Source: Candidatus Baldrarchaeota archaeon (GTDB taxonomy: Archaea; Asgardarchaeota; Baldrarchaeia; Baldrarchaeales; DXJG01). Taken from it: 32,000 nt of DNA. A model generated the notes under the pieces. It was not told the DNA's origin. It ran no database searches and worked only from the letters and a program-made list of their open reading frames with translations. The stretch spans positions 156,572 through 188,571 of the forward strand of contig DXJG01000001.1 in assembly GCA_019056805.1 (NCBI GenBank). The letters are read 5' to 3'. The position numbers were made by a program, and so were the translations under genes. Numbering within the stretch: position 1 is the first letter of the stretch; every line of letters begins with the position of its first letter. This document shows, piece after piece, positions 913 to 24,967 of this stretch.

Positions 913-2358
913 TTATCCTGTATACTTGTAGCGTCCCGTTTTCCTAGCCCATTCAATTGTGTCAGGATCAATTCGTTTCATTTCAGCTGGTTCGATCATA
1001 GATAATAGATCCCAAGCTAAGTCCAACGTATCGTCAAAGGTTCTATTTTCGAACTCACCTTGATTTATGAATCGTCTTTCAAATTCATCTGCAAATTGCA
1101 GGAACTTTCTATCTCTTTCGGTCAGAGCTTCTTCACCTACTACTTCGACAAGCTCACGCAGATCGCATCCTTCACTATAAGCATAATAAAGTTGGTCGCT
1201 AACTTCTCTATGGTCAAATCGTGTAAGTCCTTCACCGATACCTTCTTTCATCAGTCTGGACAGACTTGGACGGGGATCTATAGGGGGATATATACCCTTA
1301 CGGTGAAGTGCTCTATCTAAAATAAGCTGGCCCTCTGTTATATAACCACTAAGGTCTACTACGGGGTGTGTAATATCGTCGTGCGGCATCGTGAGAATAG
1401 GCATCTGGGTGATTGTACCCTTCCTTCCATGAATTCTTCCAGCTCTTTCATATATTGTAGCGAGATCGGTATATAGATACCCAGGGTAACCACGACGTCC
1501 AGGTACTTCTTCTCTCGCTGCTGAAATTTCTCGTAATGCTTCTGCATAATTTGTTATGTCCGTTAATATCACTAATATGTGATAGTCCTGGGTGTATGCT
1601 AAATATTCTGCTGTTGTTAAAGCTATTCGTGGCGTTATAAGCCTCTCTATAGCGGGGTCATTTGCTAAGTTTAAAAACAACACAGTATGTTCCAATGCTC
1701 CTGTTTTCTTGAAGTTTTGATAGAAGTACGTAGCTTCTTCTTGTGTTATACCCATCGCTGCAAATACTATAGCGAATTCTTCCTCCTTTCCCGGTACTGT
1801 CGCCTGTCTTGTTATTTGTGCCGCTATTCTATTGTGTGGCATTCCACTGCCTGAAAATAATGGTAACTTTTGACCCCTGACCAGTGTGTTCATCCCATCT
1901 ATTACCGATATACCTGTTTGTATCGGTTCTCGAGGATATTCTCTTGCATAGGGATTTATAGGTGCCCCGTGAATATCCCAGTAATCCTCCGGTATTGGAG
2001 GTGGCTGGTGATCTAAGGGCCTACCCGAACCGTCAAACACACGGCCTAGCAAATCTGTGGATACTGGTAGTTTTAATGTAGTTCCTGTAAATCTAACAAT
2101 TGTCTTTGAAGTATCTAATCCGTGCGTTCCTTCGAACACCTGAACTACGGCGAAATTTTTAGTAGTCTCTAATACTGTTCCACGGCGTTTTTCCCCATCT
2201 GGAGTTTCTACCTCTACTACTTCCCCATAAGCTACATCCCTTATTTTCTCTATGAAAAGGAGAGGCCCCGCTACTTCTGTTACAGTTTTGTACTCTATTT
2301 TAGTATGTGGATCTTCCATTATTTTGGAAGTTGTAGGATTATGTTCATGTTTTGGCAA
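913..2358 (-). CDS. atpB: A/V-type ATP synthase subunit B
   Basis: Motifs [46 protein letters not shown] and GYITEGQ. Likely start is TTG at 2358 (GAGGTG SD at 2367-2372); ATG at 2319 is an alternative. Confidence 0.96.
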
Positions 2359-2781
2359 AGAGTTTTCACCTCGTAAATGCATAACTCGTTTTAACCAGTT
2401 AATTGTATACATACGACTGTGTGGTGTTTTAGTGTTTTATAGATAAATATGTTTGGTTACCATGAGCATATAACTATACATACCTTAGTGGTCTATTCTT
2501 CGATATTGCGATATTTGTTACACTTTTGACATTATTCGTTTCTTTGACATTTTTCTTTAGGAGATATGATGTCTCTTACCGTGTTTTATATAATTTTAGT
2601 AGTTTCTAGTCTTTGTTTCAAGTATAGATGTTTCAATATCTCTAGTGTATGTTTTATCGTTGTACTCTGCGTGGATTCTTTTAAATGTTCATTATGAGAT
2701 TTTATAAGATTTGCCGTAATGGAAGTTTTTATATAAGCTTTATTGAAATTATTATTAAGCCTTATTTGGGGGCGGTGACTG

Positions 2782-11819: not shown

Positions 11820-12521
11820 ATGTCGACTGAAATCATCCGAGGAGTTCCTCCCACTAGAAACTTAGGGTGTCTAAAACTGGCACCCTAAGCTAGAATGGAA
11901 CTCCTCATCCTTAGAAGGCGAAAAATTCTTGCAGAAAAAGGTAGAGATTTACTTGAAGAAAAAAGGGACGCTTTAATTATGGAATTTCGAGACGTTTTGG
12001 AAAGAACATATAAACTACGGAACGAAGCTAACAAAAGTTTAGAAGAGGCGTTTAAGGAATTATCAGAAGTAAAAATGCTTATGGGACCTTTAATGATCGA
12101 AGAAATTGCGAGTAACATTCCTTCAACATTAGAACTCGAAGTAAAAACGAGGAATATAATGGGAGTCAGAGTACCAATTTTGAGGGTTAAAGAAAAACAA
12201 AACGAAGAACCTGTGCTTTATAGTTTCATCGATACTTCTTCCAAACTTGATACAGCCATTAAAAAATTTAGAAACGCCCTGAGAGCAATCTTAAGACTGG
12301 CGGAAACAGAAGGAGCTGTTAGAAGGTTGGCAGAAGAAATAAAAAAGACAAAAAGAAGAGTTAACGCCTTAAAATACGTAATTATTCCTAAGATAGAAAA
12401 CACGATAAAATATATTGAATTTTACCTTGAGGAAATGGAAAGAGAAGACTTCTTTAGGCTCAAGCGAATTAAGAGTTTATTGGAAAGAAAAGCAGGAGAA
12501 CGTATTAAAGCATCAACTTAA
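11820..12521 (+). CDS. atpD: A/V-type ATP synthase subunit D, interrupted by a 36-nt BHB-type intron (exons 11820-11859 and 11896-12521; 221 aa spliced)
   Basis: AGGTGGTGA SD, then ATG at 11820 gives MSTEIIRGVPPTR; joining across 11860-11895 gives PTRMELLILRRR...LLEEKRDALI...KTKRRVNALKYVIIP...LEEMEREDFFRLK, a typical AtpD. Confidence 0.92.
11860..11895 (+). other. BHB/BHL mRNA intron in atpD (36 nt, in-frame TAA at 11886)
   Basis: Exon stem GAGGAGTTCC(11839-48)/GGAACTCCTC(11897-906); central helix CTAG/CTAG; bulges AA|A and AA|T; intron stem CTTAGGGTGTC/GGCACCCTAAG. Confidence 0.82.
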
Positions 12522-12539
12522 TTTTTTATTATCAAGTAA

Positions 12540-12905
12540 TTATGTGTTTTTTGATGATTTTAGCAGTAAAATTGCCTGTGCTAAGTCTCCGCCAGTTTGT
12601 TCTAAAGCTTTTTTTGCGTCATCAATACTGACTCCTGCTTGAGCAGCAACTAGTTGAATGTCCTCCATAGGTATCTCTAATTTCTCTTCCTTTGTCTCTA
12701 TTGGCCGTTGCTCAGCCTCTCCGAGGACTTGATAAAGATCCTGTCCACTAACTTTCATTAAAGTTACTTGCGGATTCCTAATAATAATTTCATTATCACT
12801 CAGCCTTATTATTACTTCTTTTACTCCAGCAAGTTCCTGTATTTTTATTCCCATTTGCTTCATGAGTTTTTTCATCATTTTTGGGCTCATTCGTCGAGGG
12901 ATCAT
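12540..12905 (-). CDS. nac: Nascent polypeptide-associated complex protein (aNAC)
   Basis: MMKKLMKQMGI...EVIIR...IRNPQV...YQV and a UBA-like tail EDIQLVAAQAGVS...ALEQTGGDLAQAI. Confidence 0.95.
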   Translation of the reverse strand: MIPRRMSPKMMKKLMKQMGIKIQELAGVKEVIIRLSDNEIIIRNPQVTLMKVSGQDLYQVLGEAEQRPIETKEEKLEIPMEDIQLVAAQAGVSIDDAKKALEQTGGDLAQAILLLKSSKNT

Positions 12906-12917
12906 ATTTCGTACCTC

Positions 12918-14135
12918 CTAGCCATACATGTCATTTTCAACTCTGGATGTCTTTTCGTTTTTTCTCTTTAAAACTTTATCAATTGCTTTTAGAAAATCAG
13001 AAAATGTAACTTTGACTCTTCGTTCTCTTATGGCGAAAACTCCAGCTTCAGTACAGATAGCTTTAATATCTGCTCCAGTAGCACCTTCTGTTATTTTTGC
13101 CAATTCCCTTAACTCCACATCACTGGCGAGATTCATCTTCCTTGTGTGTATCTGAAAGATTTCTAATCTACCTTGTTGATTGGGAAGAGGAAACTCTATT
13201 ATTCTATCAAATCTTCCAGGCCTTAACAAAGCTGGATCTAACATATCAGGTCTATTTGTTGCAGCCAAAATTCTAACATCACCTCTGGCGTCAAATCCAT
13301 CTAAGGTACTAAGAAGCTGCATTAATGTTCTTTGTACTTCTTTATCACCACTAGTTGTTACATCGTATCTCTTTGAACCGATTGCATCTATTTCATCTAT
13401 AAATACTATACTTGGCGCTTTTTTCTGTGCTAAGTGAAATATTTCCCTTACTAATCTGGCACCTTCTCCAATGTATTTTTGAACGAGTTCCGACCCTATT
13501 ACCCTTATGAAAGTAGCTTTCGTCTCGTGAGCAACTGCTCTGGCAACTAAAGTTTTACCAGTTCCAGGAGGCCCACAGAAAAGGACCCCTTTCGGCGGGT
13601 CAATTCCAACTTTCTCAAAAAGCTCGGGATGAGTTAGGGGTAACTCCACACACTCCTTAACTTCTCTTAGTTGCTCATGTAATCCTCCAATATCGTTATA
13701 AGTTACAGGCGGTGATTCTTCTACCTCCATTCCCCTTACAAATGGGTCATATGATGGTGGAAGGACTTCAACAACAGCAAAAGTTCTCTGATTTAAAGCA
13801 ACTCTAACTCCAGGATGAATTTTTTCACGTGGCACCATCGGAGATACATGAACCACAAAGTTCGGACCTGTAGAACTTTTAACTATCACTCTACCATCAG
13901 AAAGAATTTCGGTAACCGTTGCGGCAATTAAAGGTGGATACTTTAATCTTTCAATCTCCATTCTTAAAGCATTCAATTCTCTCTCTAAACGCACTTTTTC
14001 TGCGTCCAGTAATTGTTTTTCGGTTTCAAGCATTCTTAATCGTCTTTCTAAATGCTTCGTATAGCTAAGAAGATAGGAAATATCTTCATCGTCAACATAT
14101 ATCCTTTTTTTGGACTCAGTTGAGTTTGGCAACAA
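12918..14135 (-). CDS. pan: Proteasome-activating nucleotidase (AAA+)
   Basis: Coiled coil plus OB domain, Walker A GPPGTGKT, Walker [16 protein letters not shown] and C-terminal HbYX MYG. Confidence 0.97.
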
Positions 14136-14208
14136 TGTCCCTCCGTCGAAGTTATAAGAAGTTCAAGTCCCTATATATTCTTGTCGTGGTTTTGGGGGCG
14201 TCACAAAT

Positions 14209-14721
14209 TTGAGATGTGAAATCTGTGGACGAAAAATCCAAGGCACACCTAAGCATATAATCGTAGAAGGCGCCAAACTAGTTGTATGCAAAATTTGTGC
14301 TAAATTTGGATCAGAAACTCCAGTAGCTACTACGCAAAGCAAAATTTCAACAAAAAGAACACTAAAAATTCCTAAAAAACCGGTTCAAAGAAGGGTAAAA
14401 TACATATCAAAGCCCATAATGTTTGAAGAAGACTACGAACTAGTAGAAAACTTTGGAGAAAAAGTTAAAAAAGCAAGAGAAAAATTAGGATGGAAACAAG
14501 AAGACCTAGCAAGAGAAATTAAAGAAAAAGAATCAATAATAAGTAAAATTGAAACTATGGAAATAACGCCACCACTAAATACAATTAAGAAACTAGAAAA
14601 AGTTCTAAACATAAAACTTACAGTACCAGCATCCAAAATATCCGAAACCCCACCACTATCTACAAAGGAGCCATCTTTAACTCTAGGAGATGCCATAATA
14701 CTTAAAAAGAAGAAAAAATAA
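14209..14721 (+). CDS. mbf1: Archaeal multiprotein bridging factor 1
   Basis: CEICG...VCKICAKFG Zn ribbon, cro-like HTH and the TLGD tail. Confidence 0.93.
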   Translation: MRCEICGRKIQGTPKHIIVEGAKLVVCKICAKFGSETPVATTQSKISTKRTLKIPKKPVQRRVKYISKPIMFEEDYELVENFGEKVKKAREKLGWKQEDLAREIKEKESIISKIETMEITPPLNTIKKLEKVLNIKLTVPASKISETPPLSTKEPSLTLGDAIILKKKKK

Positions 14722-14732
14722 ATGGTGATACA

Positions 14733-15998
14733 ATGAAAGCTTTACTTGTCGAAGTAATTCAGTCCGCCAACGATAGTAGACTGGAAGAATTCAAAGAACT
14801 CGCAAAAGCAGCTGGCTATGAAATAGAAGGAGTCTTACAGCAAATACGAAACTCACCAGATCCAGCCTATTGCTTGGGAAAAGGAAAAGCCGAAGAACTC
14901 GCACAACTGGCAAAAATGCTAAAACCAGACAAAATAATCTTTAACAAAGAATTAAAACCAAATCAAACAATAAATTTAGAGAACTTGACTAAAACAGAAG
15001 TTATCGATAGAATCCAACTTATTCTTGAAATATTCACAAAAAGAGCAGGTACAAAAGAAGCTAAACTTCAAATAGAATTAGCAAAACTAAAGTACCTTCT
15101 TCCCAAACTAAAAATGTATGTCAAATACACGAAAAAGGAAGAATTCCCAGGATTTCACGGCCCAGGATACTACCAAACAGCTAAGTATGAAAGAATGATC
15201 AGAAAAAGAATAGCTAAAATAGAAAGAGAACTTGAAAAAATTAGGTATGAAAGAGAAGAGAGAAGAAAAATTAGACGAGAACTTGGATTTTCACTTGTAG
15301 CTTTAGCCGGATATAGCAATGCAGGAAAATCCACTCTACTAAATAGACTAACGAAATCAAATGTTCCAGCAGATGATAGGCTATTCACTACTCTAGGCAC
15401 ATACACTAGATTTGCATACTTTAATGGCAAAAAAGTTCTTATAAGCGATACAATAGGATTTGTTGAAAATTTACCACATTTGGTCATTGAGGCATTTAAA
15501 TCGACATTAGAAGAAATCACATTAGCCGATTTAATTATACTGGTTGTTGATGCAAGTGAACCATTACATGAGATAGAAAGGAAGATAAAAACAGCTAACG
15601 ACGTCTTGGAGGAGGTTGGTGCGACAGGAAAACCGGTTCTCATGGCTTTAAATAAAATAGATAAAATTTCCTCAGAAGAAATCAAAGAAAAAGTATCAAA
15701 ATTAGAAGGACTTGCGCAGGATATTGTTCCCATCTCGGCGCTATATGGTTATAATCTAGATAAGTTATCTATTAAAGCAGAACAACTTCTACCAAAATAT
15801 GTTAAAATAGAAGCTCACATACCTTTAAAACAAGATGCCGGTCTTTTAATTTCACATATATACAACAGAGGAAATGTTAAACAAGTTGTATATTTTAACG
15901 ATGAAATTAAAATGCAGTTCGAAGTATTACCACATACATCCGAATATTTCAGAAAAATCATAGAAAGAGCTGGTGGAACATTAGAAATCATGCAATGA
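14733..15998 (+). CDS. hflX: GTPase HflX
   Basis: LGKGK, DRIQLILEIF, EAKLQIELA, GYSNAGKS, DTIGF and NKID. Confidence 0.96.
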   Translation: MKALLVEVIQSANDSRLEEFKELAKAAGYEIEGVLQQIRNSPDPAYCLGKGKAEELAQLAKMLKPDKIIFNKELKPNQTINLENLTKTEVIDRIQLILEIFTKRAGTKEAKLQIELAKLKYLLPKLKMYVKYTKKEEFPGFHGPGYYQTAKYERMIRKRIAKIERELEKIRYEREERRKIRRELGFSLVALAGYSNAGKSTLLNRLTKSNVPADDRLFTTLGTYTRFAYFNGKKVLISDTIGFVENLPHLVIEAFKSTLEEITLADLIILVVDASEPLHEIERKIKTANDVLEEVGATGKPVLMALNKIDKISSEEIKEKVSKLEGLAQDIVPISALYGYNLDKLSIKAEQLLPKYVKIEAHIPLKQDAGLLISHIYNRGNVKQVVYFNDEIKMQFEVLPHTSEYFRKIIERAGGTLEIMQ

Positions 15999-16008
15999 AT
16001 TGCCTATT

Positions 16009-16551
16009 TCAGGTTTTTAAAACTTTTTTACCCTTTGCAGAAGGAACTATTCTAATTTTTGCATTCTTAAACTCAAATTTAAATTCTTTTCCTTTCCAAA
16101 GTTCATGAAGGAAAACAGCAAGGGCAGCCACTTCGCTATGCGGTTGATTAGTAATTGAAACGTTCCAATCAGCTAGCTCAAAAATCCATGCTGGAACTTT
16201 TTCTGCTCCGACAACAATAAGTTTATCTTTTTTTGACTTCCTTATTTTCTCTATTACGTTAGGTAGAGGAAGACCGTACATTGTTAAGTGAATAATTTCT
16301 CCACCTTTTGCTCTCCATTCTTCTATGATCTTCCTTGCAGAAACTCCAATTTCTACGTGAAACGAGCCGCCCCAGGTCATTACAACCTTTTCTAAGGATT
16401 TTTTCACGTTTTCATCCTTTTCACCAGCAATGTAAATTCCGTTAGCGCCAAAGGCCCTACTAACCAAACCAACATGAGTGGTAATTCTTCTATCTCTTTC
16501 AATTCGATGACCTAAGCGTAAAACATATATGGTATAAGTTTTATTTCCCAA
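16009..16551 (-). CDS. trm56: tRNA (cytidine56-2'-O)-methyltransferase
   Basis: [39 protein letters not shown] and [14 protein letters not shown]; TTG start at 16551 after a GGAGGT SD. Confidence 0.94.
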
Positions 16552-16738
16552 ATTGAAGCAAACCTCCATACTTTATGTATTATATTGAAATGTTAGTTAC
16601 CAGTTGAGGCTTAGTTGGAAATTCAGTTTTCTATCTTTTTAACATTTAGATACTTTGTTGTGTTAAATGTAAAGATTTATACTGATAATCTCCTTAAGTT
16701 AATTTGAAACATGGAGAGAGAGCGGAGTAGCAATAACG

Positions 16739-17308
16739 ATGAAAAACAACGAAGTGGTGCAATTAATGCATGAAAAAGTGCAAAAACAGTCAAAGAAAAC
16801 TAAGAACGATGTGTTTGTATCAGTGGTCGAAGAACTAGTTGGAGAAGATGCTGTAAACGTAGCTATGGCACTTTCAAAAAGAAAGGAGGCTACAGATGAA
16901 GAAATATCCCAAGAAACAGGTATAAGGCTAAATGACGTGAGAAAAATTCTTTATAAACTTCATAATTTTAATTTGGCTACATATCGTCGAATAAGGGATG
17001 ATAGTACTGGGTGGTTTACATATTTCTGGCAGATAAACAAAGAAAGAGTTTATGATCTCATAAAAAGTAGAAAAAAACTTGTTTTAGAAAAATTAAAAGA
17101 AAGATTGGAATACGAAAAAAGTAAGATGTTCTTTTATTGCCCTAATGATGGGGACGCCAGGCTAACATTCGAAGAAGCTATGGAAAGTTCTTTTAAATGC
17201 CCAAAGTGTGGAAATGTACTTCAACATTTTGATAATTCCGAAATAATAAAAATATTGGAAGAAAAAATTAGAGAACTGGAAGAGGAGATGGACAGTACAT
17301 CTAAGTAA
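16739..17308 (+). CDS. tfe: Transcription factor E (TFE alpha)
   Basis: TDEEISQETGIRLNDVRKILYKL...GWFTYFW winged helix plus CP...CPKCG Zn ribbon. Confidence 0.95.
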   Translation: MKNNEVVQLMHEKVQKQSKKTKNDVFVSVVEELVGEDAVNVAMALSKRKEATDEEISQETGIRLNDVRKILYKLHNFNLATYRRIRDDSTGWFTYFWQINKERVYDLIKSRKKLVLEKLKERLEYEKSKMFFYCPNDGDARLTFEEAMESSFKCPKCGNVLQHFDNSEIIKILEEKIRELEEEMDSTSK

Positions 17309-17330
17309 CGTCGATCATGGAAGTGAAAAA

Positions 17331-18131
17331 ATGCCAATCCACTCAGTAATTTTACTAGAAAAAATTTATGGGCCCAATAAAGAAATTGCAATTAAGGCAT
17401 TTCATCACATAGCAGCAAGCCTAGTAAGGGACTTAAACGTGAAAATAATAGGAATAGAGAAAGATGTTAAGGGATGGATAAAAGTTACTCTAAACGGGGA
17501 GGACGCTGAAGCCGCAAAAAACTATCTAGCTAAGGAATTTTATTCAACAGTTTTAATTAATCAGCTTAAAAATGGAGATATCAGAAAAGGAAAGCTCATA
17601 GATGTGGAAAAATACGGCTACGGTATATACATAGATATTGGTGTTATTTCTCCCCGTCCAAAAGACGCTCTAATACCTCTGTATGTTTTAAGAAAACAAT
17701 TAGCAAATAATCATAAAGTATCTACAAGACAAATAATTAAAAAATACGCTTTTATGGATAACTTACCATTAGAAGTAAAAATAATAGATGTCGACGAACG
17801 ATTTGATACAATTGAAGTAGAATTAAGTGAAAATCAAATAAAAAAATACAAAAAATGGATTAATCAGGGGTTAGATAGAATAATCATCTGCGGAGCCACC
17901 AGACAAATGGTTAGAAAAGCGATAATAAAATCAGGACATTTACAAGACATTCTAAGTATCGAAAGACTAGGACTTTTAGAACACACTGTTGTATGCAAAC
18001 CTGGCACCACAGCACAAGGACTTATAGCAGAAATAGGAAAGTATTTACCAAAAATCCCGATGAAAGCATTTAAACCAAAAGAAATCAAGAAATGGCTAGA
18101 ACAACTAGAAAATATAAACAAAAAATTGTAA
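17331..18131 (+). CDS. DUF2110 family protein (OB/S1-like)
   Basis: GEDAEAAKNYL, YGYGIYIDIG, IERLGLLEHTVVCK...APG-like tail; the usual neighbour of tfe. Confidence 0.8.
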   Translation: MPIHSVILLEKIYGPNKEIAIKAFHHIAASLVRDLNVKIIGIEKDVKGWIKVTLNGEDAEAAKNYLAKEFYSTVLINQLKNGDIRKGKLIDVEKYGYGIYIDIGVISPRPKDALIPLYVLRKQLANNHKVSTRQIIKKYAFMDNLPLEVKIIDVDERFDTIEVELSENQIKKYKKWINQGLDRIIICGATRQMVRKAIIKSGHLQDILSIERLGLLEHTVVCKPGTTAQGLIAEIGKYLPKIPMKAFKPKEIKKWLEQLENINKKL

Positions 18132-18196
18132 AGTTAAAGTACTCAAACTAGCAAAGAATTTTTACAATAAATAAATTGTGGACTTAAAAGTGATAT

Positions 18197-18305
18197 TGGT
18201 GGGCCCGCCGGGATTTGAACCCGGGACTTCCGCCGTGTGAGGGCGGCGTCATAGCCGGGTTACCCAACGGAAGCTTATTTTCTTCCATTTCTAGACCACG
18301 GGCCC
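18197..18305 (-). tRNA. tRNA-Val(CAC) with encoded CCA and a 31-nt D-loop intron
   Basis: GGGCCCG acceptor, CCGCC-CT-CAC-AC-GGCGG anticodon arm, CCGGG-TTCAAAT-CCCGG T arm, A73 then CCA; 78 nt after intron removal. Confidence 0.95.
18260..18290 (-). other. BHB intron at tRNA position 15/16 (31 nt)
   Basis: Helix GTCT/GGGT, bulges AG|A and AA|C, intron stem AATGGAAG/CTTCCGTT; removal restores the D-arm GTCTAG-CCCGGCTA-TGAC. Confidence 0.85.
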
Positions 18306-18349
18306 AAATACATTTCCTACAGTATTTAAGTATAAATTTTTCTATCTAG

Positions 18350-18814
18350 TTACTTCAAGAACTTTTTTAGCTCATAGAGAACAACAGCTGCCACGCCTAT
18401 TGGCCCTATATCCTCAGCAACGTCTAATGAAACGGTTTTTCCAAGATCCATCTCTTTCTTTGATAATCCCGGTTCACTACCGCCGAACACAAACAAAATT
18501 TTTCTCTCTTCCTTTAGTTTATTAGCAATCTTAGTGGGATCATAAGTATCCTTGGCAAATCGTGGTGGAACAAAAACGTAAATTTCATCCGGTTTTAATA
18601 ATTCAATTACATCAGGTAAGTCTGGAAAACAAAGTAGAGACTTTTTTTGTCTATACATAATTTTTTGTGCTTCAGGAATACCGGAAACAGCCGCTGCGCC
18701 TTCAGCTTTAGAAATTATGAGCGATTTTAAACCAAAACCGATTGCAAGTTTAGCCATATCCTTTACCCTTTGAATACTGTGAACGTTGTGTAAAACCACA
18801 AAAAGTTGATCCAT
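18350..18814 (-). CDS. DUF2122 'RecB-family nuclease'/SPOUT-like protein
   Basis: VVLHNVHSIQR...KAEGAAAVSGIPEAQK...FVFGGSEPGLSKKE...IGPIGVAAVVLY; SPOUT-like knot motif. Confidence 0.7.
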   Translation of the reverse strand: MDQLFVVLHNVHSIQRVKDMAKLAIGFGLKSLIISKAEGAAAVSGIPEAQKIMYRQKKSLLCFPDLPDVIELLKPDEIYVFVPPRFAKDTYDPTKIANKLKEERKILFVFGGSEPGLSKKEMDLGKTVSLDVAEDIGPIGVAAVVLYELKKFLK

Positions 18815-18851
18815 TATCGTTCCTCCTCAAATTTGAATTAACAATTACAAA

Positions 18852-19820
18852 TTATTCACTTGATTTTTCTACTAAAAACTTTTTGACTTCACAAGCAATT
18901 ACACGAGCTAGAACAACGGGAACGGCTTCACCTACCTCTTCGTACTGTACAGATCTACCTCCAAAAAATACGTGATCATCTGGAAAACTCATCAAACGAG
19001 CATGCTCCCGCACTGTTAAAAAACGATCTTCGAAAGGGTGAATAAATCTAGAATTGCCTAAAACGGTTGGAGCAACCCTATAGGGATGTAATCTAGTCCA
19101 ATTAGTAAAAATTTTTCCTCTTGCACCTCTATAAAAGATAAGAGACTCCCCCCACCTAAGGGAAGCTATTTTCTTCCTTTTTCGTCTAGGTATGGGATGC
19201 CATTCATGATTAGGTACATCGTGTACACCTTCAGGATCTGGTAAGTCACCGATAGCCTCAATAACTGTAACCTTTTTCTTTACTGGCTTTGGAGAGAGTT
19301 TTATGTTAGAAATAAACAATCTTGAACGCCTAGAAGGATTACCGTATCTTTCAGCTCTTAAAAGATTAAAATATATTTTTGAATACCCTACTCGTTCAAA
19401 CTCTTTTTTTATTGCATCTTTTAAAGGGCCCTCAATAATTTGAGGGACATTTTCCATAACAAATACCTTTGGTCTTAAATCACCAACAAAACGAATAAAA
19501 CTTAATGTAAGTCTCCCAATAGGATCTTTATAAAGCCTATCTAGGGGATTTTCTAGTCTTTTAATATTGGCGGCTGTAAAGGGTTCACAAGGAGGCGAAC
19601 CTATAATAACATCGGGTTCTTTACCGATAAAACCCAAAAAGTCGATAGGATGAATATTTTTTATGTCTTCAACAATTAAAGTTGTATTTGGAAAATTGTA
19701 ACGATACGTTTCAGCTACGGGTGGAAAATTATCTATTGCTCCCACAACTTCGAAGTCCTCATCTACAAAGCCGCGAGAAAAACCACCAGCACCACAAAAC
19801 AGATCATAAACTCTAAACAT
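18852..19820 (-). CDS. C5-cytosine DNA methyltransferase (orphan)
   Basis: DLFCGAGG (motif I), GSPPC (IV), MENV (VI), R-R-F (VIII), LTVREHARLMSFPD and GEAVP. True start is ATG 19820 after a GAGGTGG SD; the ORF-track extension overlaps the tRNA. Confidence 0.92.
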   Translation of the reverse strand: MFRVYDLFCGAGGFSRGFVDEDFEVVGAIDNFPPVAETYRYNFPNTTLIVEDIKNIHPIDFLGFIGKEPDVIIGSPPCEPFTAANIKRLENPLDRLYKDPIGRLTLSFIRFVGDLRPKVFVMENVPQIIEGPLKDAIKKEFERVGYSKIYFNLLRAERYGNPSRRSRLFISNIKLSPKPVKKKVTVIEAIGDLPDPEGVHDVPNHEWHPIPRRKRKKIASLRWGESLIFYRGARGKIFTNWTRLHPYRVAPTVLGNSRFIHPFEDRFLTVREHARLMSFPDDHVFFGGRSVQYEEVGEAVPVVLARVIACEVKKFLVEKSSE

Positions 19821-19891
19821 ATATTCCACCTCAAAATTAGGGTGGCGCCGGGGGTGGGATTTGAACCCACGCGGCACAACGGCCACGGGCT

Positions 19892-19905
19892 ATCCACCCC
19901 TAGGA
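19892..19905 (-). other. BHB intron 3 of tRNA-Ser, canonical position 37/38 (14 nt)
   Basis: Helix CTGC/GTGG, bulges TA|T and AT|A, mini-stem CC/GG. Confidence 0.85.
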
Positions 19906-19913
19906 TAGCAGGC

Positions 19914-19941
19914 TTGAGCCCGCGAAGGAAACTATAGCGGA
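19914..19941 (-). other. BHB intron 2 of tRNA-Ser, position 29/30 (28 nt)
   Basis: Perfect helix GAGC/GCTC, bulges GG|T and AA|G, intron stem CCGC/GCGG. Confidence 0.88.
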
Positions 19942-19956
19942 CCGCTCCCTACCAGG

Positions 19957-19978
19957 TTCCCCGGAGATCTATTATCCT
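19957..19978 (-). other. BHB intron 1 of tRNA-Ser, position 15/16 (22 nt)
   Basis: Helix TCCT/GGGG, bulges AG|A and AA|C, short GGA/TCC intron stem. Confidence 0.83.
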
Positions 19979-20209
19979 CTAGGATACCCCGGCATTCTTT
20001 AATTAGATAAATGTGCGTCTTCCTTATTTATTATTTTCTAAGTTATTAATAGTGATTAATCAAAGAGCATGTTACTATACATAGTGGGTTTTTTAATTTT
20101 TGGAACAATAAGTCAAGTAACGGTTTAATAGAGATTTTGATAAATAGATCATAAATCAAGTAATATTCTTTAAATTTCAATAATATAGATAATTTTGAAA
20201 AGAATTAAA

Positions 20210-20559
20210 GCGGCCGCGGCCCCCTTGGGTGGATACCTTTCCCGATCGCGGTGTTTCAGCCCCCAGTCTCTACTCCGCACCCCCGTGAGCGCCGAACGTC
20301 CGGGGTTAGGTTGCTCCTTCGGGTGGACAGTAACACTCTCCATCTCCCGGGCCTGGCCTGGTTCCCCCGGTAAGGGTCGTAGTACTCCCGCCTAAGCGGG
20401 AGACCCGACCGCCGCCGACCCCACGGGACGGAGTTTCATCGCTGTGAGGCTAAATCCTGCGATCGGGGTTAGGTATCGCCCCTTGGGTTACTGGCCCCGC
20501 CATAAACCGGGTTTGCGGTTACAGGAAACCGGTAACTTCCCGGCCCTACCCGCGGCCGC
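20210..20559 (-). ncRNA. ffs: Archaeal SRP (7S) RNA with a 26-nt insertion/intron in helix 8
   Basis: Terminal helix GCGGCCGCGG/CCGCGGCCGC, Alu-domain CTGTAACC, long helix 5 (GATACCT/AGGTATC, CCCGATCGC/GCGATCGGG, ACTCCGT/GCGGAGT), helix 6 hairpin CTCCCGC/GCGGGAG, helix 8 GCCAGG...AGCAAC. Confidence 0.92.
20318..20343 (-). other. BHB intron in SRP RNA helix 8 (26 nt)
   Basis: Perfect helix CGGG/CCCG, bulges AG|A and AA|G, intron stem TGGA/TCCA; splicing gives CAGG-CCC-GGGA-GGG-AGCA. Confidence 0.87.
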
Positions 20560-23881: not shown

Positions 23882-24967
23882 ATGCGCAAAATAAAGGAAA
23901 CTATAGGCAGATCTCTGGTTGTGGGGAAACTTCCACATGGCTGTGAACTATGTATGGAAGGAGCTAAACTGGTTCTCTTTGTAACAGGTTTATGTCCCAG
24001 AAGATGCTTTTACTGTCCACTTTCGGAAGCAAGACGATGGAAAGATGTAACATTTGCTAACGAACTGGAGGTAAAGAAAAATGAAGATATAATTAGAGAA
24101 GCTAAATTAATGAACGCGCTTGGGGCAGGAATAACCGGAGGAGACCCCCTAGTAAAGCTGGAAAGAGCTATAAAATACATTAAAATACTTAAAGAAACTT
24201 TCGGATCAGATTTTCACATCCATTTATACACTAGCGGAAGAACAGCCACTAAAAAAATCTTACATGAACTTTCAGAGATAGGATTAGATGAAATACGTTT
24301 CCATCCTAGCAAAAACGACTGGAAAAAAATTGAATGGGCAGTTGACACAAACATGGATGTTGGCGCCGAGATTCCTGCAATACCCGGAAAAGTTGATGAA
24401 ATTAAAAAATTCGCTAAATATCTTGACGATATTGGAGCATCTTTTCTCAATTTAAACGAGTTGGAATTTAGTGAGACAAATGCTCAAGAACTTAGAAAAA
24501 GAAATATTAAACCTAAAAGTGGCACGTTGGCAGCAGCTGAGGGAAGCGAGGAAACCGCAATTGAAATTTTAAAATGGGCGGCCAACAATCTAAAAATAAC
24601 GGTACATTATTGCCCATCAAGTCTTAAAGACAGTATTCAACTTAAAAACAGACTTTTAAGAAGAGCAAAAATCGTAGCTAAACCTTATGAAGAAATCACA
24701 GAGGACGGACTGCTTGTTAAGGGGATAATACAACTACCAAATAAAGATCCTAATTATCTAAAACAGTTAAAACTCATTTTAATAAGGCGATACGGAGTTC
24801 CCTCAAAGTTATTGTACGTAGATGAAGAAAAAATGGTAATTGAAACAGCTTGGTACATTGTTGAAGAGTTATCTAAAGAGCTAAAACGTAGATTCAAAGC
24901 CAAAGTTGGCATTGTTGAAGAGTATCCAACAGCTGATAGAATTAGAATATCATATACCCCTCTCTAA
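23882..24967 (+). CDS. Uncharacterised archaeal radical SAM protein
   Basis: TGLCPRRCFYCP, GITGGDP, HIHLYT, DEIRFHP and NLNELEFSE. Confidence 0.9.
   Translation: MRKIKETIGRSLVVGKLPHGCELCMEGAKLVLFVTGLCPRRCFYCPLSEARRWKDVTFANELEVKKNEDIIREAKLMNALGAGITGGDPLVKLERAIKYIKILKETFGSDFHIHLYTSGRTATKKILHELSEIGLDEIRFHPSKNDWKKIEWAVDTNMDVGAEIPAIPGKVDEIKKFAKYLDDIGASFLNLNELEFSETNAQELRKRNIKPKSGTLAAAEGSEETAIEILKWAANNLKITVHYCPSSLKDSIQLKNRLLRRAKIVAKPYEEITEDGLLVKGIIQLPNKDPNYLKQLKLILIRRYGVPSKLLYVDEEKMVIETAWYIVEELSKELKRRFKAKVGIVEEYPTADRIRISYTPL

Follow-up and report, generated by a model that had tools for sequence, protein, structure and literature searches.

Six short inserts in four genes of a Baldrarchaeia genome

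The window analysed here is a 32,000-nucleotide stretch of contig DXJG01000001.1 (positions 156,572 to 188,571 of the forward strand) from a metagenome-assembled genome (MAG) of the Baldrarchaeia, an Asgard lineage (1.92 Mb, 35.5% G+C, 91% complete, 3.6% contaminated). Within 8.5 kb of this window lie six inserts of 14-36 nt, distributed over two tRNA genes, the signal recognition particle (SRP) RNA gene and atpD, the gene for subunit D of the V-type ATPase. Our subject is whether these are introns of the bulge-helix-bulge (BHB) type that is excised by the tRNA-splicing machinery. On the window, ARAGORN reported one tRNA with a wrong 5' half, while Rfam returned the SRP RNA and one barely significant tRNA. 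The coordinates of the inserts were obtained by reading the sequence and then checked by script.

An earlier note, made from the letters of this DNA alone, had claimed six such introns spread over three RNA classes (tRNA, SRP RNA and mRNA). Its six inserts, their lengths and their terminal bases all match ours: the 3' end is AA in five of the six and AT in the sixth, and four of them begin with A. The interval that it gave runs from 11839, where the exon-exon helix of atpD described below begins, to 20343, where the SRP intron begins. Its assignment of the inserts to BHB-type introns in three RNA classes is likewise upheld by their anatomy, their excision products and the comparison with relatives. 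For this comparison the host genome is labelled G000, three genomes of the same genus G001, G002 and G003, and a representative of the sister genus in the same order G004.

The tRNA-Val(CAC) and tRNA-Ser(GCU) genes

Four of the inserts belong to the two tRNA genes:

18305..18197, minus strand: tRNA-Val(CAC) gene, including CCA; exons 18305..18291 and 18259..18197
18290..18260, minus strand: tRNA-Val intron, 31 nt, D-loop position 15/16
19993..19843, minus strand: tRNA-Ser(GCU) gene, with three introns
19978..19957, minus strand: tRNA-Ser intron 1, 22 nt, position 15/16
19941..19914, minus strand: tRNA-Ser intron 2, 28 nt, position 29/30, central helix GAGC/GCTC
19905..19892, minus strand: tRNA-Ser intron 3, 14 nt, canonical position 37/38, ending in AT

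When spliced in silico, both genes yield regular products by ARAGORN: tRNA-Val gives a canonical 78-nt cloverleaf, the unspliced gene being the source of the false 5' half, and tRNA-Ser gives a perfect 87-nt cloverleaf. The latter gene was missed by both ARAGORN and Rfam in the window, and in its unspliced form is miscalled as tRNA-Asp. In G001 and G002 the hairpin of the tRNA-Val intron is wholly unlike that of the host in sequence, yet complementarity is retained, and a tRNA-Val gene of G004 has the predicted spliced D-loop, uninterrupted. Similarly, the tRNA-Ser intron at 15/16 is found in G000, G001 and G002 and is missing from G004, whose sequence at this point equals the predicted spliced product; at 29/30 and 37/38 G004 does have introns, with sequences unrelated to those of the host. 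Across the genome, the Rfam tRNA model recovers only 29 tRNA genes, about six of them of standard length, and most of the tRNA genes are interrupted. Two further tRNA genes (L155, at G003 C3:1286-1395, and one at G000 C13:42249) have 15/16 introns that start with AAATGG or AAATC and end in GTTGG.GAA; their likeness to the ends of the tRNA-Val intron may reflect a constraint at the D-loop site rather than copying.

The SRP RNA gene

20556..20213, minus strand: SRP RNA gene (Rfam Archaea_SRP, 168.5 bits)
20343..20318, minus strand: SRP intron (26 nt), located at the helix-8 tip; its central helix is CGGG/CCCG, its bulges are AGA and AAG, and its hairpin is UGGA/UCCA

The SRP RNA has 28 inserted positions at the helix-8 loop as against 2 in the Rfam consensus. 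Excision of the insert leaves a helix 8 of the form CCC-GGGA-GGG between the conserved CAGG and AGCA, which is identical to that of the intron-free genomes G004 and G008. Using a pattern search, we detected an insert at the same site in 13 of 400 Asgard genomes, spread over four genera, with no matches for the control. The 5' bulge AGA and the inner hairpin are present in all 13, and the 4-bp central helix (with G-C or G-U pairs) in 12, the remaining one having 3 bp; the hairpin sequences are unrelated to each other. The complete Freyarchaeia genome CP147778 contains a helix-8 intron at this site.

Two other kinds of insertion were seen in Asgard SRP RNAs. In the SRP RNA of G027 (L061, ~200-235), the 5' side of helix 8 is interrupted by 31 nt with an AA end and a CTAGGCC/GGCTAG hairpin, an insert that has the appearance of a BHB intron at another SRP site. 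Several others (L044-L049, L052, L055, L058) have 15-33 extra nucleotides in or after the first Rfam hairpin loop (consensus UaGG); as these are widespread, they are probably a lineage expansion and not an intron.

The atpD gene

11820..11859, plus strand: atpD exon 1, 13 codons (MSTEIIRGVPPTR) and the first base of codon 14
11839..11848, plus strand: 5' strand of the exon-exon helix, 10 bp with 11897-11906, closing the atpD splice motif
11860..11895, plus strand: atpD intron, 36 nt; central helix CTAG/CTAG, 5' bulge AAA, 11-bp hairpin, 3' bulge AAT
11896..12521, plus strand: atpD exon 2, V-type ATPase subunit D (Pfam ATP-synt_D, positions 1-196, E 9e-66)

The atpD gene is present in a single copy in the genome. 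Its intron holds an in-frame TAA, and upstream of exon 1 is a ribosome-binding site (GGTGGTGA) that is kept in G001 and G003. Splicing would give an AtpD with the N-terminus MSTEIIRGVPPTR-MELLILRRR, and the N-terminal peptides predicted for the spliced protein are MSTEIIRGVPPTRMELL. All 27 relatives outside the genus have the corresponding element, of the form x(8-12)-[PAT]TR, fused straight to MEL. The intron itself is absent from these 27 genomes and present in both other members of the genus with the gene (G001 and G003), where its stems and bulges are identical and its loop is variable. The 10-bp exon-exon helix is also kept in G001 and G003, while by eye the matching stretches are not complementary in G004. 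The peptide encoded by exon 1 is kept in two genomes of the same genus, and codons 4-13 of this mini-exon show four synonymous and no non-synonymous changes, which indicates that this short coding segment is under purifying selection.

The 'stops inside' flags raised for the atpD genes of G039, G014, G019 and G028 were rejected as introns: the genes of G039, G014 and G019 align unbroken, the locus of G028 was aligned too, and there is no internal interruption. The usual place of archaeal atpD is the end of the ATPase operon, which is not the case here: atpD (11820-12521, plus strand) lies about 9 kb from, and on the opposite strand to, a gene at 913-2412 (minus strand) that we take to be atpB by a conserved peptide motif like that of subunit B.

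A common splice geometry and the readings it permits

The six inserts share one geometry. Identified by scan and by hand, a central helix of 4 bp (G-U pairs allowed) is present in all six, as are two 3-nt bulges on opposite strands and an inner hairpin (h'). The central helices are as follows:

atpD: CTAG/CTAG
SRP: CGGG/CCCG
tRNA-Ser 29/30: GAGC/GCTC
tRNA-Ser 37/38, with G-U pairs counted: CTGC/GTGG
tRNA-Ser 15/16, with G-U pairs counted: TCCT/GGGG
tRNA-Val, with G-U pairs counted: GTCT/GGGT

If both bulges are cut behind their second base, the conserved mature sequences of these RNAs result. The minimum-energy fold of the atpD region is the splice motif itself (-39.4 kcal/mol, z -8.3, 0.93 of the ensemble), and the local fold of the SRP RNA displays the central helix, a bulge and the hairpin. 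A directly stacked outer helix is found only at tRNA-Ser 29/30 (7 bp) and 37/38, where it is the anticodon stem. A bare scan of the genome for the BHB motif returned as many matches as a control with mirrored geometry, whatever the score below about 30; since the control yields equal numbers, the motif alone cannot be used to count introns. That the inserts go beyond chance is shown by the excision products and the comparison with relatives and not by the motif.

Taken together, these observations make it highly probable that the six inserts are genuine archaeal BHB introns of the tRNA type. We propose that the precursor RNAs fold such that the 4-bp helix is flanked by the two 3-nt bulges, that a splicing endonuclease of the heteromeric (alpha-beta)2 kind cleaves both bulges 3' of their second base, and that RtcB ligates the exons, with the intron probably freed as a circle. 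Splicing would then be needed for tRNA-Val(CAC) and tRNA-Ser(GCU), for a GNRA-capped helix 8 in the SRP54-binding region of the SRP RNA, and for a full-length V-ATPase subunit D, whose first exon of 13 codons would be joined to the remainder of atpD. The window would be a dense sample of a genome-wide condition. While the anatomy of the inserts, their excision products, their conservation and the enzyme genes can be read directly, we infer the cleavage and ligation, and their constitutive nature.

Several points weigh against this interpretation. Four of the six motifs (atpD, tRNA-Val, tRNA-Ser 15/16 and SRP) are relaxed: the outer helix is 0-1 bp long for tRNA-Val, tRNA-Ser 15/16 and SRP, while that of atpD is displaced by 5 nt, making its 3' cut site one side of a 5x3 internal loop. 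Cleavage of these four would depend on the substrate range of the enzyme. Further, the local minimum-energy folds of the SRP and tRNA introns are not better than those of shuffled sequences, and a search for RNA runs containing the 9-kb stretch listed none, the runs X1-X5 being of DNA only. Finally, codon 14 of unspliced atpD is an in-frame ATG, made up of the final base of the intron and TG, such that a truncated AtpD is possible in principle even without splicing.

The last two points are shared by the alternative that the inserts are retained, with SRP helix 8 being extended in this lineage, AtpD starting at the internal ATG and the 13 codons constituting an upstream open reading frame (ORF). 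Under this alternative, it would also be in order that exon 2 alone wholly covers ATP-synt_D. Nevertheless, the internal ATG has no ribosome-binding site, whereas a strong one precedes exon 1; the mini-exon encodes a peptide with PTR, shows synonymous change only and corresponds to the N-terminus that is fused to the protein in other relatives. In the SRP RNA, retention would cost helix 8 the GNRA loop that is conserved in relatives, and the 13 SRP inserts keep the geometry of splicing rather than their sequence. We accordingly regard retention as very unlikely. One metatranscriptome (X15) contains 6% of the SRP words; its contigs are 85-92% identical and hence derive from a relative. A short contig from it, in which the base at 20317 reads straight into a helix 8 with a GGAA loop, is either an intron-free gene or the mature RNA of that relative, and decides nothing for the host.

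For atpD alone, one might further consider that the 36 nt are skipped during translation, as happens in gene 60 of phage T4: the sequence CTAGAA, on which the ribosome would take off and land, is repeated at both junctions, and a stable hairpin and an in-frame stop lie between them. However, the repeat is an automatic result of a palindromic CTAG helix combined with AA bulges, and the take-off codon is not directly followed by a stop codon. The same geometry, moreover, recurs in the untranslated RNAs of the window and in genes lacking the repeat, such as pyrG (see below). Bypassing is thus scarcely credible next to intron splicing.

The splicing enzymes

The genome encodes two EndA paralogues at two loci, both with N- and C-terminal EndA domains. 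The alpha-like one (184 aa) is closest to the catalytic subunit of the A. pernix heterotetramer (3P1Z_B, E 1.5e-44). It can be aligned as well with its counterparts from S. tokodaii and P. aerophilum, and the His-bearing motif is kept. Against the A. pernix protein both this motif and the Lys-containing crenarchaeal loop (IRKPKAPSF against VEKPRGADF) align without gaps. The second paralogue (178 aa) has a Val in place of the catalytic His of M. jannaschii EndA. The ligase RtcB is also present (608 bits). An EndA architecture with two paralogues is reported to cut relaxed motifs and the cbf5 mRNA (PMC5829648, PMC4731332), and the pair described here fits a broad-specificity (alpha-beta)2 enzyme, judging by its sequence. 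The broad-specificity splicing endonuclease postulated by the earlier note is, at the level of the genes, what this genome appears to encode, namely a catalytic EndA and one lacking the catalytic His, alongside RtcB.

Further introns in protein-coding genes

We searched the genome by combining the BHB scan with a test for the joining of ORFs, and used continuity of a Pfam profile across the junction as confirmation. The excess of the ORF-joining test over its control amounts to only about 5-10 candidates, and the outcome is not a full census. For four genes the profile resumes across the predicted junction with next to nothing lost: positions 1-40 then 42-265 in pyrG, 3-59 then 61-208 in pcm, 1-32 then 33-173 in porG, and 1-229 then 231-342 in fbp. 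In rpoN, the second exon matches from position 7 of a 58-position profile, and infB and glyA, the latter with two introns, have canonical junction peptides. In the case of a cpgS-like gene, whose first exon has no Pfam match, the junction peptide looks canonical by its motif. These introns reside on the G000 contigs C6, C9, C10 and C17 (loci L160-L167). The positions of the mRNA introns, counted in codons, are:

atpD: 13
rpoN: 6
cpgS-like gene: 15
pyrG: 41
infB: about 40
porG: about 32-56
pcm: about 60
glyA: about 45 and 75

Thus, at least eight further housekeeping protein genes seem to be interrupted by similar micro-introns, one of them (the cpgS-like gene) on the strength of its junction peptide only, whereas cbf5 is uninterrupted in this genome. 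The earlier note had made its reading depend on the existence of further non-tRNA introns elsewhere in the genome, and such introns are indeed found.

Certain regularities of these introns deserve mention. Of the ten mRNA introns verified, nine fall before about codon 80, and only that of fbp (at about codon 230) is internal. The fbp insert (L166:955-987; G000 C17:208556-208585) is 30 nt long, in frame and free of stops, with a strong BHB fold; the Pfam profile shows no insertion at this place, and gene callers would take the insert for 10 additional residues. Among 15 introns of G000, CTAG is found 10 times where 1.1-1.5 occurrences are expected, and at three splice sites in the window (tRNA-Val, tRNA-Ser 15/16 and atpD) this tetranucleotide forms the end of the 5' exon.

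The number of genes concerned bears on whether the inserts might be errors of the assembly, or else mobile elements in the form of small hairpins that create pseudogenes. The genome is a draft MAG, incomplete and slightly contaminated, which speaks for such an explanation. However, in DNA contigs from an independent study the inserts of atpD and of the SRP RNA gene recur with 0-1 differences, and they are accordingly not artefacts of the assembly. The same two are common to three species of the genus, and the tRNA introns to the two species with recovered tRNA loci. If the inserts were inactivating, more than 10 essential single-copy genes would be dead, and yet both exons are under purifying selection. 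We give this explanation almost no credence.

A different question, raised by the earlier note, is whether splicing is regulatory, with EndA and RtcB serving as a shared checkpoint on tRNA supply, SRP assembly and ATP-synthase assembly. Essential single-copy genes from several pathways do rely on one enzyme pair, and the concentration of the mRNA introns toward the 5' end could be read in the same sense. On the other hand, the host genes share no theme beyond housekeeping, conditional splicing is without evidence, and a neutral spread of introns under a permissive endonuclease predicts the same pattern. A checkpoint of this kind seems to us improbable; constitutive splicing accounts for everything seen.

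Origin of the introns

The introns in atpD, the SRP RNA gene and position 15/16 of tRNA-Ser are present in the host genus and absent from the sister genus, a distribution that fits recent gain, with loss as the alternative. To this extent the intron gain envisaged in the earlier note agrees with the data, whereas the route that it proposed by way of example, reverse ligation followed by reverse transcription or recombination, finds no support. A Pfam query with RVT_1 found no reverse transcriptase in this 91%-complete genome. When 15 introns were compared with the genome by blastn-short, no significant similarity was recovered; the introns of the window resemble no other place in it. A 16-nt match of the atpD intron on contig C10 was rejected as intron kin, as it lies in ordinary coding sequence. 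Nor did a 2026 preprint on the tRNA introns of Asgard archaea identify a general way in which they arrive (bioRxiv 10.64898/2026.10.13.758758).

Relationship to known systems

The tRNA part of these findings is ordinary. Introns at the same positions (15/16, 29/30 and 37/38) are known from the Thermoproteales and from the Atabeyarchaeia and Freyarchaeia (Sugahara 2008; PMC11291895; bioRxiv 10.64898/2026.10.13.758758), where, as here, there are several introns per gene, standard finders miss them and the EndA genes are of the (alpha-beta)2 type. The introns described here do not form sequence families, as in other Asgard archaea and unlike in the Thermoproteales. The Baldrarchaeia thus join the intron-rich Asgard lineages. 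Asgard papers on introns report them in tRNAs only (PMC11291895; bioRxiv 10.64898/2026.10.13.758758).

Among mRNAs, as of 2020 cbf5 was the only gene reported to have a BHB intron in its coding region (PMC7714728). The crenarchaeal cbf5 intron (Aeropyrum, Sulfolobus; Watanabe 2002, Yokobori 2009, PMC2738675) is likewise a short BHB element within coding sequence whose excision restores the frame, and its hosts have a hetero-oligomeric splicing endonuclease, as G000 does by its genes. In contrast, the introns reported here are in other genes (atpD, pyrG, pcm, porG, fbp, infB, rpoN, glyA), in an Asgard archaeon, and in many genes rather than one. A BHB intron is also known from the 5' untranslated region of the HVO_1309 mRNA of Haloferax; both cases involve mRNA substrates, but there it is an untranslated leader that is processed, by a homodimeric enzyme, whereas here codons are interrupted (PMC7714728).

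The literature on SRP RNA describes the permuted Thermoproteus gene only, for which an ancestor bearing a simple intron has been postulated (PMC4731332). Maturation of the Thermoproteus RNA (Plagens 2015, PMC4731332) likewise involves a BHB motif, the splicing endonuclease and RtcB; the gene studied here differs in being collinear, its helix 8 bearing a simple intron at the tip, and circularisation of the mature RNA is not implied.

In eukaryotes, HAC1 and XBP1 are spliced by Ire1 together with a tRNA ligase or RtcB, which is mRNA splicing by proteins only, with cut sites in paired stem-loops and a tRNA-type ligase. The nuclease there is Ire1, acting on a single regulated target and depending on stress; this is an analogy and does not imply homology of the introns. 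Relative to all these systems, the SRP and atpD introns, as well as the scale of the phenomenon in mRNAs, appear to be new.

Other features of the window

Three GC-rich islands (1961-2071, 13552-13620 and 24111-24173) were considered as hidden introns and rejected, all of them being conserved coding segments. At 2771-2858 there is an intergenic, GC-rich 13-bp inverted repeat (GGGGGCGGTGAC...GTCACCGCC) around about 60 nt, in an otherwise AT-rich genome; it matches no Rfam family.

Implications

In this one Asgard genome, the tRNA-splicing machinery apparently serves at least nine protein genes, including atpD, in addition to the SRP RNA. If splicing is indeed the correct reading, then archaeal gene prediction needs an intron step, such genes being at present called truncated, split or oddly inserted. 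Likewise, the 'simple BHB intron' that has been hypothesised as the precursor of the permuted SRP genes would exist, and the entry of introns into protein genes without a spliceosome would be open to study in relatives of the ancestor of eukaryotes. More broadly, we incline by a narrow balance to the view that in the Baldrarchaeia, and probably in other intron-rich Asgard archaea, splicing by EndA and RtcB is routine for at least a dozen housekeeping protein genes and the SRP RNA, with introns that are recent and concentrated toward the 5' end. Were this to hold, the closest archaeal relatives of eukaryotes would possess a second, spliceosome-independent route to the interruption of genes.

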